DNA of 64,000 bases from assembly GCA_016215455.1 (NCBI GenBank), contig JACRJP010000003.1, forward strand, positions 66,657-130,656, given 5' to 3'. The notes under the pieces were generated by a model. That model made no database searches, was not told the DNA's origin, and saw nothing but the letters and a program-made list of their open reading frames with translations. Shown in pieces: positions 29,477-38,948 of this stretch (position 1 is the stretch's first letter; each line of letters starts with the position of its first letter). Origin of the DNA: Candidatus Tayloriibacteriota bacterium. Lineage in GTDB: Bacteria > Patescibacteriota > Minisyncoccia > Phycocordibacterales > PALSA-1337. The position numbers and the translations under genes were made by a program.

Positions 29477-30061
29477 ATGACACCACTTGCTCCAGAAAAA
29501 AAAGAATCGTATCGAGAATTAATTATCACTATTCTCATAATCATCGCGATTCTCTTTCCAATACGTTATTACATAGTTCAACCATTCATTGTAAACGGAG
29601 CTTCAATGGATCCAACATTTACAACAGGACAATATCTTATCGTTGATGAACTCTCTTTCCGTTTTCATAAGCCTGAACGTGGTCAGGTTATTATTCTCAA
29701 GTATCCAAGAGACCCAAGTACTTACTTTATTAAAAGAATTGTTGGCTTACCGAATGACAACATTATGATCAAAGACGGTAAGGTAACAATTACGAACGCA
29801 GAATATCCCGAAGGATTTGAGCTCGAAGAAAACTACGTACAGATCAATCACATCTCTCACGAAACATACCAAATCACCCTTGGTCCCACCGAATACTTCG
29901 TCATGGGTGACAACAGATCACAGAGTTCTGATTCGAGAAGTTGGGGACCGCTTGATCGTGAATTAATTGTAGGACGACCACTACTCCGCCTATTACCACT
30001 AAGTAAGATAGACATATTTCCAGGAACTATCACGAACGACCATGAAAACAACCAAAAGTAG
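29477..30061 (+). CDS. lepB: Signal peptidase I
   Basis: TM helix then catalytic Ser motif GASMDPTF, Lys box IKRIVGLPND, and YFVMGDNRSQSSDSR box. Confidence 0.9.
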   Translation: MTPLAPEKKESYRELIITILIIIAILFPIRYYIVQPFIVNGASMDPTFTTGQYLIVDELSFRFHKPERGQVIILKYPRDPSTYFIKRIVGLPNDNIMIKDGKVTITNAEYPEGFELEENYVQINHISHETYQITLGPTEYFVMGDNRSQSSDSRSWGPLDRELIVGRPLLRLLPLSKIDIFPGTITNDHENNQK

Positions 30062-31292
30062 CCCGAAAAAAGAAAGCAAGAATAAAAAAGATCAAGGTAC
30101 TATCAATCACAATCATCTCGACAAAATTGGCGAGATAGCTTTGTACTATGGTTGTAGTCCTCACGCTCCAATCGAAATCAAAAAAACTGATATTGATACT
30201 GCAAAGGAATTCCTTGATCACGATTATATTGATGATAATGGCAAGGGTGACCGACTTCCTCTCCATGTCGAAGAAAAAGTTGCCCTATTACGTACATACA
30301 CTGAAGAAGAGATGCATACACTTCCTCAACCTGTGATGTTGTATTTCAAATCTGCTTTCAAAAATCCTTTACTCAAAAAAACAAGTGACTATCCTCGCTA
30401 CTGTGATATTGAAATCTTGGGTAATAGCAAAAGTGTAGCTGAAGCAACACTCATTCAAATCGCTCGAGCAATTCTCGCAGAAGAAGGCTATGAAAATATC
30501 TGTATTGATATCAATAGTATTGGTGATAAGGATTCAATGGCACGCTTTACTCGAGATCTCACAAACTACTACCGTAAACACATCAATGATCTCCACACAG
30601 AATGTCGTCAACTTTTGAAGAAAGATCCTTTTGAACTTCTTGCATGTAAAAATGACCGCTGCAAACAATTGAATGAAAATGCACCTCAATCAATGGGGTT
30701 TCTTTCGGAATCGAGTCGTGCACACTTCCAGGAAGTCCTCGAATATCTTGAAGCTCTCGATATCCCCTACCGTATCAATAACGGTCTCATTGGTAATCGA
30801 AAATATTGTTCAGAAACTATTTTTGAAATTATTAATCTTGACCACGAAACAAAACCGAAAGAACAACGGACCCTTGCTATCGGAGTTCGTTATGACGGAC
30901 TCTCAAAAAAGATGGAATTCAAACGAGAAATTCCAGGAGTTGGTCTTTCAATACTTATTAAAGGTAAACGCGAAGAACTTCGCAAAGAAGTAAAGAAAAC
31001 AAAAATCCCTCAAGTGTATTTTATTCAACTTGGCTTTGAAGCAAAACTCGCAAGTCTTAAGGTAATTGAAATTCTTCGTAAGGCAAAGATCCCTGTATAT
31101 CAGTCACTTCCAAAAGATAAACTTGGGGCTCAAGTATCTATGGCTGAAAAAAATCAAACCCCCTTCACTATCATCATTGGTAAAAAAGAAGCTATGGAAG
31201 GTACCGCAATTGTCCGAGATACCGCTACTCGCTCTCAGGAAACTATCAAAATTGAGGATTTGGCGGTGTACCTCAAGAAAGCTTCAGAATAA
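30042..31292 (+). CDS. Histidyl-tRNA synthetase-like protein with divergent catalytic motifs (HisS/HisZ family)
   Basis: Clear class-II HisRS architecture. Blocks align to HisRS: DINSIG, ESSRAHFQEVLEYLEALDIPYRIN, motif-3-like GVRYDGL. Class-II anticodon-binding domain present (PFTIIIGKKEAMEGTAIVRD). Motif 2 (FRHERPQKGRYRQF in E. coli) is replaced by FKNPLLKKTSDYPRYCDI. The His-binding loop RGLDYY is replaced by GNRKYC. Confidence 0.6.
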   Translation: MKTTKSSPKKESKNKKDQGTINHNHLDKIGEIALYYGCSPHAPIEIKKTDIDTAKEFLDHDYIDDNGKGDRLPLHVEEKVALLRTYTEEEMHTLPQPVMLYFKSAFKNPLLKKTSDYPRYCDIEILGNSKSVAEATLIQIARAILAEEGYENICIDINSIGDKDSMARFTRDLTNYYRKHINDLHTECRQLLKKDPFELLACKNDRCKQLNENAPQSMGFLSESSRAHFQEVLEYLEALDIPYRINNGLIGNRKYCSETIFEIINLDHETKPKEQRTLAIGVRYDGLSKKMEFKREIPGVGLSILIKGKREELRKEVKKTKIPQVYFIQLGFEAKLASLKVIEILRKAKIPVYQSLPKDKLGAQVSMAEKNQTPFTIIIGKKEAMEGTAIVRDTATRSQETIKIEDLAVYLKKASE

Positions 31293-32046: not shown

Positions 32047-33228
32047 ATGTCCCGACCAATAATTACAGGTATCGATATCGGTACCTATCATGTTAAAGTC
32101 GTCATTGCACACCCTGCAACGAAGTCTTCATCAGCACCTGTCATCATAGGAACAGGTGTTTCAGAATCTCGTGGTATTCGACATGGGTACATTACGAGTG
32201 TTCATGATATCGGCCGCAGTATCCGTGCTGCTCTTGATGAAGCAGAACGAAAAGCTAAAGTAAAAGTAAAGCGAGCCTTCATTTCTATTGGTGGTATTGG
32301 TCTCGGAAGTATTACTTCACAAGGAGCAACGATTGTTACTCGTGCTGATAATGAAATTACCCAACTCGATGTCAAAAAAGCTCACGAACAAAGTGAGCAT
32401 GACATACAAGCTTCTGCGATTCTCAATCGTAAAATCATTCACTCTGTTCCATTGGAATATAAGATTGATGGGAAAAAAGTGCTTGGAAAACCAGAAGGTA
32501 TGAAAGCTCAGCGTCTTGAAGTAAAGATGCTATTCATTACTTGTCTCGAACATCACTTGAATGATCTCATTCAAGCTGTTGAAGAAGCTGGTGTTGAAGT
32601 TGAAGATGTCATGGCATCTCCTCTCGCAGCAAGTCTTGTAACTCTCACAAAATCTCAAAAAATTGCAGGCTGTGTTCTTGCAAACATTGGAGCTGAAACT
32701 GTTTCAATTGCAGTATTTGAAAATAATATTCCAATTTCACTTGAAGTATTCCCTATCGGTTCTACCGATATTACAAACGACATTGCCCTTGGTCTCAAAG
32801 TCCCTCTTGAAGAAGCTGAACAAATTAAAATTGGTGCAATTACTGGTACGTCATATCCTCGAAAGAAACTCGAAGAAATTATCTATGCTCGTCTCTCAGA
32901 TATATTTGATCTCATCGAAGCTCACCTCAAAAAGATTGGCCGAAGTGGTCTTCTTCCAGCAGGTATTATCATCACCGGTGGTGGTGCAGGTCTAGGTAGT
33001 ATTGAAGACATGGCAAAGATTTCTCTTCGACTCCCTTCACGTATAGGAAGTGTCATGAGCTCTCAAGACTCTCGAGAAAGCTTTAAAGACGCTACATGGG
33101 CCGTAGCATATGGTTTGTGCCTCTTTGGTATCAGTGCTGATGAAGGACCCTCTCTTGATAGCGGTGCCCGTCTTGTTCGCACAACCAAAAACAATATCAT
33201 TGCTTGGTTGAAACAGTTTCTCCCGTAA
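32047..33228 (+). CDS. ftsA: Cell division protein FtsA
   Basis: Actin-like ATPase. N-terminal ITGIDIGTYHVKVVIAH and GGGAGLGSIEDMA motifs. 393 aa. Lies upstream of ftsZ. Confidence 0.9.
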   Translation: MSRPIITGIDIGTYHVKVVIAHPATKSSSAPVIIGTGVSESRGIRHGYITSVHDIGRSIRAALDEAERKAKVKVKRAFISIGGIGLGSITSQGATIVTRADNEITQLDVKKAHEQSEHDIQASAILNRKIIHSVPLEYKIDGKKVLGKPEGMKAQRLEVKMLFITCLEHHLNDLIQAVEEAGVEVEDVMASPLAASLVTLTKSQKIAGCVLANIGAETVSIAVFENNIPISLEVFPIGSTDITNDIALGLKVPLEEAEQIKIGAITGTSYPRKKLEEIIYARLSDIFDLIEAHLKKIGRSGLLPAGIIITGGGAGLGSIEDMAKISLRLPSRIGSVMSSQDSRESFKDATWAVAYGLCLFGISADEGPSLDSGARLVRTTKNNIIAWLKQFLP

Positions 33229-33246
33229 GATTATCCTCAATACTGA

Positions 33247-34194
33247 CTACTCTGTATCACACGAGAAAGATGAGATTGCTTTTGGCTGTACTCTACCACC
33301 GAGAGACACATCATCAACACACCAGTGTCCTGGTTCTGTTTTAAGCTTTACTGAAAGTGCCCAGTGATTCTCATTATTAAAACACTGATATTGTGTTGTT
33401 AGAAACTTATTAAGTGTTGCAATCATCTGGGGATCGTTACAGAAATTAATCGCTCCTCCTTCTACCCCAGGGTCACTCGCTATATAATTTGACCGCATCT
33501 GAATAAGTGCTGCTCGAACTCCTGCATCATATGCCTTAGCTCGTGCTGTATCCAATGCAACAAGAACAACACTCGAGAAGACTCCTACTATTGCTATGAT
33601 GAAAAGTAGGATAACTACAGTCCCGATGACAACAGCAATGGGGTGTGTCTTGCCTTTCTCACGTGGATTAATCTGAGCAATCTCTTCTGGTGTATATTCA
33701 GCAGGAACCACCATTGTTTTGGTTATCTGATCATGCCAACCATATGGATATTCACCAAAAAGATACGAAAACTGTTCAAATGGAATTAAACGTGCAAATG
33801 TTCTTCCAACAACTCTCCAAAACTTTGGTTTAGAACCATCAAGACAAACAACTTTGGTATCACTCGCCCACTTACCAGGAGTACGCTGCCATATAGTTTC
33901 AAAGAAGATGTAATAGGCAGGGTATGCAACGATGAGAAGAAGCCAAGCTATAAAGAATGTTGTTCTTGCAGAATATCCTTGTCCTGAAAATAGAAAAGTT
34001 ACTCCAACAAATATACCAATGAAAATCACGGCGAGAATTCCATATCCAACTCGATCGATCAAATAGTTAACTAAACGTTGCCATATTGTCGCCGAATGAC
34101 GTGCTGTCAGAGACTCTCCTGTTGTTTGCGCCCCACACTTTCCACATAATTTTGTTCCTTCTCCAACAGGTTGGCCACACTTTTGACAATTCAT
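33247..34194 (-). CDS. Zinc-ribbon + RDD-domain membrane protein with C-terminal pilin-like Cys-rich domain
   Basis: N-terminal CxxC...CxxC (CQKCGQP...CGKCG). RDD-like region (QRLVNYLIDRVGYGIL...GKWASDTKVV). TM helix, then a pilin-like amphipathic segment (LVALDTARAKAYDAGVRAALIQMR) and four Cys in the C-terminal domain. Confidence 0.5.
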   Translation of the reverse strand: MNCQKCGQPVGEGTKLCGKCGAQTTGESLTARHSATIWQRLVNYLIDRVGYGILAVIFIGIFVGVTFLFSGQGYSARTTFFIAWLLLIVAYPAYYIFFETIWQRTPGKWASDTKVVCLDGSKPKFWRVVGRTFARLIPFEQFSYLFGEYPYGWHDQITKTMVVPAEYTPEEIAQINPREKGKTHPIAVVIGTVVILLFIIAIVGVFSSVVLVALDTARAKAYDAGVRAALIQMRSNYIASDPGVEGGAINFCNDPQMIATLNKFLTTQYQCFNNENHWALSVKLKTEPGHWCVDDVSLGGRVQPKAISSFSCDTE

Positions 34195-34332
34195 AGTATA
34201 TGTTCTATTTATTAATATAATAATCTTATACTACAAACCTTTTTATTAAAAGCTTGTCAAAGCATAGACTCTTTCCTTTTTCTAAGCGTTTTTGGTATGA
34301 TAGGGGGACTTATAACGTAAGTAACGACCAAC

Positions 34333-35553
34333 ATGCCCAACATCACCCCAGAAATAGAAGCGTTCGCACGAATCAAAGTCCTCGGAGTCGGAGGTTCCGG
34401 AGGAAATGCTGTGAATCACATGGTCAATTCCAAAGTAAAAGGAGTTGATTTCATTACGATTAACACAGATGCTCAGGATCTTCACCGATCTCTCGCAAAG
34501 AAAAAGATTCATATTGGTAAAAACCTCACTCGAGGTCTTGGTACTGGTATGAATCCAGAGATGGGACGTCGTGCTGCTGAAGAAACTCGTGAAGAAATTC
34601 AGGATGCTATTAAAGGTGCGGACATGGTCTTCGTTGCATGTGGTCTTGGTGGTGGAACTGGAAGTGGAACAAGTCCTCTCATTGCTCGTACTGCAAAAGA
34701 ACTCGGTGCTCTCACTGTTGGTGTTGTTACTCGACCATTCTTCTTCGAAGGTCAACAGCGATCAAAGATTGCTGAAGCAGCTCTTGATGAACTTCGAAAA
34801 GAAGTTGATGCAATTATCGTTATTCCCAACGACAGACTTCTCTCAATCATTGATAAGAACACAACAATGAAGAATGCCTTCGCTATGTGTGACGAAATAC
34901 TTCGTCAGGCAGTTGAAGGTATTTCTGATCTCATCACTACTCCAGGTATCATCAACATCGACTTCGCCGACATTCGCGCAGTCATGGAAAGTGCAGGTTC
35001 AGCCCTCATGGGTATTGGAAGTGCTTCAGGAGAAAACCGTGCTATGGAAGCTGCAAAAATGGCTATCAATTCCCCTCTTCTCGATCTTTCAATCAACGGA
35101 GCAAAGGGTGTACTCTTCTCTATTGCTGGAGGTGAAGATCTCACTATGTTCGAAATCCAAGATGCTGCTAAGGTTATTACAGAATCAATCGATCCTCAGG
35201 CAAAGGTTATCTTCGGTACAATCCGCGACGAGAAGCTTAAGAAAAACGAAATTCGTATTACAGTCATTGCTGCAGGTTTCCCAGACAGTTCTCTTAATCA
35301 ATCAACTAACGGTGTCGCAGCGGCTCCCGCAACTCAATCTGCACCACAAGCAAAGAAACCTTTTCAGTCATCTGATGTTGCACCAGCACGAGAAGAAAAG
35401 AAGAGTATTTTCAATAGTGTAACTCCTCCAACACCAGCTCCTCAACCTATCAAAGACGTGAAGGTAGAAGAAAAAAAAGACACTTCTCGTAACGATGATG
35501 ACGATGATTGGGGTGCAGTTCCAGCGTTTCTCCGACGTTCAAAGATTAAGTAA
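34333..35553 (+). CDS. ftsZ: Cell division GTPase FtsZ
   Basis: Tubulin signature GGGTGSG, T7 loop NIDFADI. Pro/Ala-rich linker and conserved C-terminal peptide (DDDDWGAVPAFLRR). Confidence 0.95.
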   Translation: MPNITPEIEAFARIKVLGVGGSGGNAVNHMVNSKVKGVDFITINTDAQDLHRSLAKKKIHIGKNLTRGLGTGMNPEMGRRAAEETREEIQDAIKGADMVFVACGLGGGTGSGTSPLIARTAKELGALTVGVVTRPFFFEGQQRSKIAEAALDELRKEVDAIIVIPNDRLLSIIDKNTTMKNAFAMCDEILRQAVEGISDLITTPGIINIDFADIRAVMESAGSALMGIGSASGENRAMEAAKMAINSPLLDLSINGAKGVLFSIAGGEDLTMFEIQDAAKVITESIDPQAKVIFGTIRDEKLKKNEIRITVIAAGFPDSSLNQSTNGVAAAPATQSAPQAKKPFQSSDVAPAREEKKSIFNSVTPPTPAPQPIKDVKVEEKKDTSRNDDDDDWGAVPAFLRRSKIK

Positions 35554-37302: not shown

Positions 37303-37815
37303 CTACTTCTTTTTACTTGCTTTTTTTGTTGTAACTTCTTTCACAAGAGGAGCACTTTCTACAACAGGTTCTGTTGTGAGAGTTTGAGAGAGGTTATAGA
37401 CAGAAGAAATGAGTTTCTCGAGTTTTGTATTGATTCCTTCAAGTTGTTTCTTAAGTTCATCAATATTTCCACCATTACTTTGTGAAGTACTTGGCGTTGA
37501 ATATGCTCCAGGTGATTTGAAGTCACGTCGTTCTCGTCGATCTGGTCGATCTGATCGGTCTCCACCCATAGCAGCACGTCCAGCAAAACAATCGCGGCAG
37601 TATACAGGCTTTTCACCTGTTGGTCGGAATGGCACCTCACACGCCTTATGACAACTACTACATGTTGCAGCATGCATTGTTGCTGGGCCACGATCAGCTC
37701 CTCCCTTATTAAATCCTCTACCTCCAAACTTCTTACCTCCTCCTCGAAATCCCCCTTTAAAACCGCCATTTCGCCCACCTCGAGTAAATTTATCCATATA
37801 TGTTATTGAGGTCAT
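37303..37815 (-). CDS. RGG/GGF-rich protein with C4 zinc ribbon, putative nucleic-acid-binding
   Basis: N-terminal Gly/Arg/Phe repeats (GGRNGGFKGGFRGGGKKFGGRGFNKGG), CSSCHKAC...17 aa...CRDC zinc ribbon, Arg/Asp-rich segment, then a coiled-coil and Lys-rich tail. Confidence 0.4.
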   Translation of the reverse strand: MTSITYMDKFTRGGRNGGFKGGFRGGGKKFGGRGFNKGGADRGPATMHAATCSSCHKACEVPFRPTGEKPVYCRDCFAGRAAMGGDRSDRPDRRERRDFKSPGAYSTPSTSQSNGGNIDELKKQLEGINTKLEKLISSVYNLSQTLTTEPVVESAPLVKEVTTKKASKKK

Positions 37816-37841
37816 ACACTACCACACTTATGGCAAAATGA

Positions 37842-38207
37842 CTACTTTATACCCCGAGAACTCTCAAGAATCTTACGTACAATTTCTAACTTGGGATTAG
37901 GTTTCAATCCTCTTTCTTCTCTCATAGCAATCTGTGAATGTACTTCAGCAAGTTTTTTCTGTATCCATTTCTCAAATTCTTCAGGAGTCTGACTCTGAAG
38001 CTTTTTTAATTCTATATACTGTTCATCCATTATGACCCCTGGATTATTACGAATCATTGCAATAGCGATACCTGCAATGATGATAGCAGCCGCAAAGTTA
38101 TACGGAGATTGTATATTGGTATACACAATGTAACAGAGGGCAGCACCAATAGCTGCGTATATAAATTGTCTGAGAGTTAACGGACCGAAGATTTTTTCTT
38201 CATCCAT
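37842..38207 (-). CDS. Small membrane protein co-operonic with the SPFH protein
   Basis: 121 aa with a TM helix (FIYAAIGAALCYIVY...IIAGIAIAMI). Immediately downstream of the stomatin-like gene with a 4-nt gap. Confidence 0.4.
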   Translation of the reverse strand: MDEEKIFGPLTLRQFIYAAIGAALCYIVYTNIQSPYNFAAAIIIAGIAIAMIRNNPGVIMDEQYIELKKLQSQTPEEFEKWIQKKLAEVHSQIAMREERGLKPNPKLEIVRKILESSRGIK

Positions 38208-38210
38208 ATA

Positions 38211-38948
38211 TTATTTCTTGATAAATCCTTCAAGTGCCTTGAGAGCTTCAACTGGAACCATATACACCACAGTATTACTCTGATCAGATGCCATATCATT
38301 GATTGACTGTAGTGTTCTCAAATGAAGTGCTCCTGGAGTCTTAGCGAGCATTTCTGCAGCTTGAGCGATGTTTTGAGAAGCAGCCAATTCCCCTTCTGAG
38401 TTGATGATAACAGCTCGCTTTTCTCGTTCAGCTTCTGCTTGTTTACCAATTGTGCGTTCCATGTCAGCAGGCAAACTTACATCCTTCAATTCTACATTCT
38501 GGACTTTCAATCCCCACGCACCTGTTTCCATATCGACAATTTCTCGAATTCGATCAGCAATCTTATCGCGACTTGAGAGAAGTTCATCAAGTGTTACCTC
38601 ACCAACAATATTTCGCATTGTTGTCTGAGCATACTGAGAAATTGCATAGCGAAAATCTTCCACTTCAACAATAGCTTTGTTTGCATCACTTACTTTATAG
38701 TAAATAACAGCATTAACTCGAACTGATACGTTATCTTTTGTAATCGCATTCTGATCAGGAACATCAACAGCCTTTGTTCGGATATCAACTTTCTGATAGC
38801 TCTGAATAACTGGCCATACGATTCTCCAACCCGGTTCCATGATAGAGGTAAACTTTCCAAAGGTGAATTTAACCCCTCTTTGATACTGGTTAATCTGACG
38901 GATGCTTGTAATGACCAAAAACACAACAATCGCAATGATGATATACAT
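38211..38948 (-). CDS. SPFH/Band-7 (stomatin/prohibitin-like) family protein
   Basis: N-terminal TM then SPFH domain (QYQRGVKFTFGKF...VDIRTKAVDVPDQNAITKDNVSVRVNAVIYYKV...) and a C-terminal coiled-coil. Confidence 0.85.
   Translation of the reverse strand: MYIIIAIVVFLVITSIRQINQYQRGVKFTFGKFTSIMEPGWRIVWPVIQSYQKVDIRTKAVDVPDQNAITKDNVSVRVNAVIYYKVSDANKAIVEVEDFRYAISQYAQTTMRNIVGEVTLDELLSSRDKIADRIREIVDMETGAWGLKVQNVELKDVSLPADMERTIGKQAEAEREKRAVIINSEGELAASQNIAQAAEMLAKTPGALHLRTLQSINDMASDQSNTVVYMVPVEALKALEGFIKK

Follow-up and report, generated by a model that had tools for sequence, protein, structure and literature searches.

A major-pilin paralogue fused to an RDD membrane domain, encoded between ftsA and ftsZ in a Patescibacteria genome

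What kind of protein is encoded by a gene that lies, on the opposite strand, between ftsA and ftsZ, and does its place in a division locus say anything about its function? We addressed this question for a 64,000-nucleotide stretch of a Candidatus Tayloriibacteriota genome (Patescibacteriota; assembly GCA_016215455.1, contig JACRJP010000003.1, positions 66,657 to 130,656; hereafter the window), in which a gene of 315 amino acids, here called the insert, separates the two. An earlier note, made from the letters alone, had read its product as a fusion of a zinc ribbon, an RDD-family membrane domain and a pilin-like C-terminus, and had judged both the architecture and the location to be unusual. 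We find that the insert encodes a membrane protein with three transmembrane (TM) segments, in which a putative zinc ribbon and an RDD domain, the latter made up of a hairpin of TM1 and TM2 and a highly conserved loop, are followed by a complete paralogue of a major pilin. The best overall explanation, to which we give a probability of about one half, is a tethered-pilin membrane protein with a pilus-linked role, whose position between ftsA and ftsZ is incidental.

The C-terminal module of the insert is a paralogue of the major pilin

The features of the insert are given below with the evidence for each; A2 is a profile built on the C-terminal pilin module of the family to which the insert belongs, AF2 stands for AlphaFold2, and pLDDT for the predicted local distance difference test.

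33247 to 34194, minus strand: insert gene (zinc ribbon, RDD domain and tethered pilin module; 315 amino acids, ATG start); open reading frame, Pfam, homologues, second assembly
34126 to 34194, minus strand: putative N-terminal zinc ribbon, residues 1-23 (C3, C6, C17, C20), predicted cytoplasmic; PF13240, E = 4.5e-4, 20.4 bits
33670 to 34092, minus strand: RDD domain core, residues 35-175; PF06271, E = 7.3e-16
33475 to 33642, minus strand: pilin-type alpha1 helix, residues 185-240, its N-terminal half being TM3 (residues ~181-219); A2 profile, AF2
33250 to 33474, minus strand: pilin head, residues 241-315, a short helix and four beta-strands, predicted to lie outside the membrane; BLASTP, AF2 pLDDT 84.9

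None of the library models covers residues 207-315 of the insert protein. The A2 profile, when compared with PDB sequences, retrieved type IV pilins or pseudopilins in 14 of 14 matches, the best being Thermus PilA4 (6xxd, E = 1.8e-8), Geobacter PilA (E = 2.8e-7) and PulG (E = 7.9e-5), with alignments that begin at residue 3-4 of the mature pilin. The GspG and GspH models match 6/14 and 5/14 family members, respectively, in both cases weakly. In an alignment of 22 homologues the helix is conserved (IAIIGILSSVVLASLNxARxKGxDA), and the head behind it has four invariant cysteines (C252, C271, C292 and C312), which may pair in two disulfides; in the AF2 model (pLDDT 86.9 for the whole protein) the helix runs unbroken from residue 185 to 240 before the short helix and four strands of the head.

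Searched exhaustively with HMMER, 1.84 billion representatives yielded 28,330 matches at E ≤ 1e-3, 58 of them at E ≤ 1e-30. Among the top matches, 75-77 of the 166 proteins compared are canonical prepilins of 127-170 amino acids (M..KKG|FTLIELLVVIAIIGILSS...), which match profile positions 18-141, through the whole head, at E = 1e-27 to 1e-32. These prepilins and the tethered modules have a common cysteine pattern (C...CN.S..WA...G.WC.DS.G...C). Direct BLASTP comparison of residues 176-315 of the insert protein with the free prepilins gave 33-39% identity over 106-135 residues, with E values down to 4.5e-21, and the alignment spans all four cysteines (residues ~192-312). Two of the free prepilins, P0088 (GCA_013558375.1) and P0062, are each encoded between pilC and pilD in complete pilus operons with the order pilM-pilO-pilB-response regulator-pilT-pilC-pilin-pilD-minor pilins, and therefore occupy the position of the major pilin. 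These results show that the C-terminal module is a complete paralogue of a major pilin of type IV pili, with the alpha1 helix serving as TM3 and carrying the four-cysteine head, a closer kinship than the likeness to a pilin helix from which the analysis had started.

The fused pilin lacks the sites for processing and assembly

While sharing the alpha1 sequence and the head motifs of the free major prepilins, the insert protein differs from them at its processing and assembly sites. PF07963 (N_methyl), which P0088 and P0062 do carry, finds no match at E ≤ 1 in the whole insert protein or in its C-terminal part; the search for a pilin N-terminal helix domain, proposed in the earlier note as a check, was thus negative with this model, and it was the module profile that matched pilins and pseudopilins, and nothing else, in PDB. 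The G[FM]T[LI][IV]E motif is absent from the protein, the column of the profile alignment that corresponds to pilin Glu5 is hydrophobic (Ile195 in the insert protein), and the pilin module starts only at residue ~185, behind a zinc-ribbon/RDD domain of 180 amino acids rather than behind a short leader ending in Gly(-1). It also lies outside a pilus operon, unlike the two free prepilins.

The fused pilin is thus without both the prepilin-peptidase site (G-1/F1, the G|F cleavage site of prepilins) and Glu5, and would therefore not be processed or polymerized like a normal pilin but stay anchored in the membrane. Most likely, this copy represents a non-polymerizing, membrane-tethered pilin paralogue.

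The N-terminal half combines a putative zinc ribbon with an RDD domain

The four ribbon cysteines follow the pattern C3-x2-C6-x10-C17-x2-C20. The score of the insert protein for PF13240 (Zn_Ribbon_1) remains below the gathering score of 25, and the homologues P0003, P0005, P0007 and P0017 reach 27-33 bits, above that threshold; the putative double CxxC zinc ribbon is therefore supported at the level of the family. The RDD domain proved more straightforward, with PF06271 matching residues 35-206 at 59.1 bits (gathering score, 24.1), and with every homologue tested also matching this model. Of the residues for which the domain is named, at least 90% of the family members have R40 and D47, and all sequences in the alignment of 22 have D155 (in GWHD). 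Conservation across the family peaks in residues 94-163 (WQRTPGKW...GWHD), a stretch that follows TM2 and is predicted on the cytoplasmic face.

Hydropathy places TM1 at residues ~44-74 and TM2 at ~78-99, in agreement with AF2 helices at 37-72 and 76-101. The region that usually forms the third RDD segment (118-150) has a KD19 maximum of 0.67, too low for a membrane-spanning segment, so that the insert protein has three hydrophobic segments in all, and the loop at 102-185 holds 12 lysines and arginines. Besides the four cysteines of the ribbon and the four of the head, a single one is found at position 117. Hydropathy, charge distribution and the orientation of pilins together point to a topology in which the ribbon and the conserved RDD loop are cytoplasmic and the pilin head is outside; the extracellular head proposed earlier fits this three-TM, N-in arrangement.

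The best Foldseek match of the whole model was PDB 7t92_C (E = 0.035, probability 1.00, 179 aligned columns, TM-score 0.32), which is not significant. That chain belongs to the peroxisomal retro-translocon ubiquitin-ligase complex and may be a lead to the fold of the RDD membrane domain.

In its PF06271 match and its conserved R/D/D positions the insert protein resembles known RDD proteins such as Bacillus subtilis SppI/YteJ, which inhibits the membrane protease SppA (PMC7568657), and an RDD protein of Halobacillus andaensis, for which Na+/H+ antiport has been reported (PMC5996927). A further study describes fusions of VanZ with RDD, calls the role of the RDD part unknown and notes a conserved intramembrane site that faces the cytoplasm (PMC12419801). 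The known examples are, however, stand-alone or fused to partners other than a pilin.

Tethered pilin modules form a family and occur behind several partners

The architecture is not confined to the window. About 53-57 cluster representatives combine RDD with a pilin module, most of them with a zinc ribbon, one member comes from a Candidatus Adlerbacteria genome, and some already bear the JGI label "RDD family YckC / pseudopilin PulG". The judgment that this architecture is unusual holds insofar as our literature searches found no description of an RDD-pilin fusion or of an uncleaved tethered pilin; with some 55 cluster representatives it is not a one-off. Within the family the heads vary. Some members have GspG-like heads (weak PF08334 matches), and nine (P0003, P0005-P0010, P0014 and P0018) add a C-terminal domain of ~170 amino acids past the pilin head (columns ~615-776 of alignment A1), which in P0018 follows directly after the helix with no cysteine head. 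The sole match of this extra domain, which the insert protein does not have, was a sub-threshold one to PsbP_2 (E = 0.011 in P0006).

Uncleaved pilin modules were also found behind other N-terminal modules, namely a second RDD subtype (YAGFWxR; YAGFWVR..ID), a zinc-ribbon/TM hairpin of the type CGNCGY...CPKC ("KCGNCGYIGPGE...ILAW.C...CPKCKSTF"), and a small helical domain ("LL.Y...GW...D...AF"). Proteins with such other partners include P0029-P0031, P0042, P0050, P0051, P0057, P0060, P0061, P0076, P0079 and P0084, and further P0028, P0038, P0056, P0091, P0123 and P0135. In a nearest-neighbor BLAST comparison, made on a sample biased towards the query profile, tethered modules cluster together irrespective of the partner, and most free prepilins (71/77) have another free prepilin as their closest match. 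Pilin tethering may therefore extend beyond the RDD-pilin family.

Pilin modules joined to other domains in one polypeptide have precedents in the modular pilins, such as Caulobacter CpaL and the minor pilins of Streptococcus sanguinis (bioRxiv 10.1101/2025.02.12.637803). In those proteins a cleavable pilin module is N-terminal, the added domains follow it, and the product can enter the filament; the insert protein has the opposite order and lacks a cleavage site. The parts are of known families, and the reversed, uncleavable fusion is not described in the literature that we searched.

A pilus-linked role and its alternatives

Type IV pili are presented in two reports as central to host attachment and DNA uptake in ultrasmall Patescibacteria (PMC11623550, PMC10633639). 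Few accessory and regulatory proteins of Patescibacteria pili are known, and the RDD-pilin family offers a concrete candidate partner both for the pilus system and for the RDD domain, suggesting that RDD domains can work beside a pilin helix in the membrane. In pilins, the alpha1 helix carries the pilin-pilin and pilin-machinery contacts within the membrane. Since the tethered copy keeps a near-consensus alpha1, we favor, tentatively and judging from sequence, an accessory or regulatory role in a pilus system and not in division. The pilin helix and head would engage either the membrane pilin pool or the machinery that assembles the pilus, while the other half, with RDD domain and zinc ribbon, would link this engagement to the cytoplasmic face. 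Candidates of this kind escape standard pilin searches, because these rely on the cleavage motif.

A more far-reaching version, which we consider doubtful, is that Patescibacteria, and perhaps other bacteria, possess a class of tethered, unprocessed major-pilin paralogues that sit behind interchangeable modules and couple the state of the pilus to the cytoplasmic face. If this were true, the coupled state would be that of the membrane pilin pool or of the filament base, and the class would act as pilus regulators or anchors of a novel type, in organisms whose way of life depends on pili.

Several observations weigh against a pilus-linked role. No pilus genes lie near the insert or near any fused homologue examined, and the window itself holds no other pilin module and no pilus machinery among its ~25 annotated open reading frames. 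The neighborhoods of the family have no recurrent neighbor, with CTP synthase and a helix-turn-helix protein each appearing in just 3/20 loci. The function of RDD is unsettled in the literature (PMC5996927, PMC7568657, PMC12419801). In Foldseek comparisons with PDB neither the head (best E = 0.86) nor the whole model had a significant match, so that the assignment of a pilin fold to the head is based on sequence homology and predicted topology.

The absence of a pilus-gene neighborhood in any context examined would also be expected if the insert were a generic RDD membrane protein, in which the pilin module had been co-opted as an anchor with a small, disulfide-stabilized extracytoplasmic domain (for example a sensor or ligand-binding domain) and had no remaining link to pili. 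Such a protein would likewise fit a family in which the strongest conservation is in the RDD loop and not in the head, in which heads range from GspG-like ones to the missing cysteine head of P0018 and the enlarged C-termini of nine members, and in which an identical kind of uncleaved module stands behind several unrelated N-terminal modules. A plain anchor, however, would need no near-consensus major-pilin sequence, and alpha1 keeps one (IAIIGILSSVVLASLNxAR); the head, too, retains the four cysteines and the CNDS/WA/CxDS motifs of pilins in the major-pilin slot. We regard the generic alternative as unlikely, if not to be dismissed, and retain a pilus-linked accessory or regulatory role as the preferred reading.

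A different use of the same surface would be an anchor or terminator at the filament base, where the tethered pilin docks under the last subunit and, as the RDD half cannot leave the membrane, extension stops. The module is indeed a close paralogue of major-slot pilins, it has kept the alpha1 packing surface, and by its topology it is permanently membrane-bound. In current assembly models, though, a new subunit docks by means of Glu5 onto the N-terminus of the subunit before it, and here Glu5 is replaced by a hydrophobic residue; linkage to pilus genes is missing as well, and no terminator subunit of a type IV pilus is known. This alternative appears improbable.

Least plausible among the pilus-related alternatives, and very hard to maintain, is that the RDD half is a giant leader and that prepilin peptidase cuts before TM3 (after the "KG" of NPREKGK) to free an atypical pilin. 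Many members do have a basic K-G motif ahead of the hydrophobic helix, on the side of the membrane at which prepilins are cleaved. The Gly, however, is not kept across the family (P0003, P0007, P0013, P0018, P0020 and P0022 do not have it at that position), it is ~18 residues and not 9 away from IAIIGIL, and F1, E5 and an N_methyl match are all missing.

The insert is an intact gene in a junction that tolerates insertions

The flanks of the insert are the following.

32047 to 33228, plus strand: ftsA, 393 amino acids, upstream flank; TIGR01174 at 246 bits, PF14450, PF02491
34333 to 35553, plus strand: ftsZ, 406 amino acids, downstream flank; TIGR00065 at 410 bits, PF00091, PF12327
34195 to 34332, no strand assigned: divergent spacer of 138 bp, AT-rich, with the extended -10-like TGGTATGAT at 34293..34301; sequence reading

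The stop codons of the insert and ftsA are convergent and 18 bp apart, and the start codons of the insert and ftsZ are divergent, with the spacer between them. The GC content of the insert (0.40-0.43) is the same as that of the neighboring genes. Flanking repeats give no convincing sign of a mobile element either: the one pair that brackets the insert, a 24-nt inverted repeat at 33211-33234 and 34220-34243, is 71% complementary and too weak to tell from chance. A Logan contig from another sample (L086, SRR21713533, 1559 bp) matches window positions 33097..34655 at 99.36% with no gaps, spanning the 3' end of ftsA, the entire insert and the 5' end of ftsZ. Because this independent assembly agrees with the window, the arrangement is not an assembly artifact, and both samples carry the gene intact; the two copies of the insert differ at 6 sites, 3 of them synonymous and 3 conservative (V/I, A/S, K/R). 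Since homologues at 32-47% identity also exist in other metagenomes, the insert is a real, conserved gene. The antisense gene of 315 amino acids between ftsA and ftsZ, as first described, is thus borne out by its reading frame, by the models of its flanks and by the second assembly. The rest of the window, so far as annotated, holds housekeeping genes (gyrA, S1, pth, lepB, tsaD, a class I tRNA synthetase, lepA and murJ). At 30042-31292 on the plus strand, a HisRS-like protein of 416 amino acids combines a good anticodon-binding domain with a weak match to the catalytic domain (tRNA-synt_His, 28 bits), and its start overlaps the end of lepB by 20 nt; it may be a divergent or degenerate histidyl-tRNA synthetase or a HisZ-like protein. 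On the minus strand at 37303-38948, three small genes in a row encode a treble-clef zinc-finger protein (zf_Tbcl_2) whose N-terminus is rich in Gly and Arg, a membrane protein of the PrgI family, and an SPFH/Band 7 protein.

Using FtsA, we found 80 species-level relatives (53-73% identity), which go under the labels Candidatus Taylorbacteria, Paceibacterota, Parcubacteria or Patescibacteria. They share the gene order ybeY-ftsA-ftsZ-trxB, and the insert gene was found at the ftsA-ftsZ junction in none of the 80, so that synteny in related genomes offers no common conserved arrangement that would account for it. Among the 14 closest relatives (FtsA at least 69%), a spacer of 29-98 bp separates the two genes in 13, and a different gene, of 184 amino acids and unknown type, in the remaining one. 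Many of the closest relatives (L006, L009-L013, L015 and others; FtsA 65-73%) are third-party annotation (TPA) metagenome-assembled genomes titled "uncultured Candidatus Saccharibacteria"; equally close relatives are titled Taylorbacteria or Paceibacterota, and the Saccharibacteria labels look generic or incorrect.

The expectation that ftsA and ftsZ are nearly always adjacent fails in this clade. Of the 72 loci that have both genes, 33 show a gap of no more than 150 bp, 6 one of 150-300 bp and 33 one of more than 300 bp (for example 6185-6748 in L020, 6191-6736 in L026 and 6194-6748 in L055, among loci L006-L085); in at least four others, ftsZ is absent within 1.5-5 kb. The commonest junction insert, present in 18 loci, is a membrane protein of ~185 amino acids starting MVLPGHLAGGYL and co-oriented with ftsA and ftsZ; one tested copy is a YdjM (PF04307, E = 1e-20). 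The remaining inserts are unrelated genes on either strand. The YdjM-type inserts resemble the arrangement in the window in that a single extra gene, often for a membrane protein, lies between ftsA and ftsZ within the ybeY-ftsA-ftsZ-trxB backbone; they differ in being co-oriented and of an unrelated family, whereas the insert of the window is antisense and, among the 80 relatives sampled, unique to its own species. This comparative pattern points to a lineage-specific insertion of a single gene into an insertion-tolerant junction.

The junction is probably permissive because ftsZ would have a promoter of its own. In 12 of the 14 loci with the shortest gaps, an extended -10-like element, TGnTA(A/T)nAT, stands 6-7 nt ahead of the ftsZ ATG, which would imply a leaderless mRNA; in other loci the distance is larger, and in the window TGGTATGAT precedes the ATG by 31 nt. 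Loci with the element include L006, L009, L011, L015, L018, L022 and L059. Such consensus matches have a high background (21/75 upstream of ftsA, 25/39 upstream of trxB), and a sigma-70 scan of the region, at background level for promoters (9 against 8.7 expected), did not flag the element of the window. The 138-bp spacer must contain the promoter of the insert as well. On the ftsA strand, a terminator-like hairpin at 33321-33334 (ACCAGTGTCCTGGT with a T-rich tail after it), ~90 nt beyond the ftsA stop codon and within the 3' end of the insert, could end ftsA transcripts; terminator-like sites are somewhat enriched here, with 7 against 3.1 expected. The textbook pairing of ftsA and ftsZ is loose in Paceibacterota, apparently owing to a separate ftsZ promoter, and division loci in these genomes should be read accordingly.

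A role in division, for example as a membrane tether or regulator of FtsA/FtsZ placed in the locus for co-regulation, is very improbable. All that speaks for it is the position, which is stable in two samples of the species. Against it, none of the 80 relatives has the gene there, none of the ~20 full-length family members whose surroundings were examined in other genomes is encoded within 6 kb of ftsA or ftsZ, the insert is on the opposite strand, and the junction accommodates many unrelated genes in this clade. With the junction so often interrupted, the place of the insert tells little about its function. The location that had been called unusual is therefore so with respect to this gene, but not with respect to interruption of the junction as such, which is frequent.

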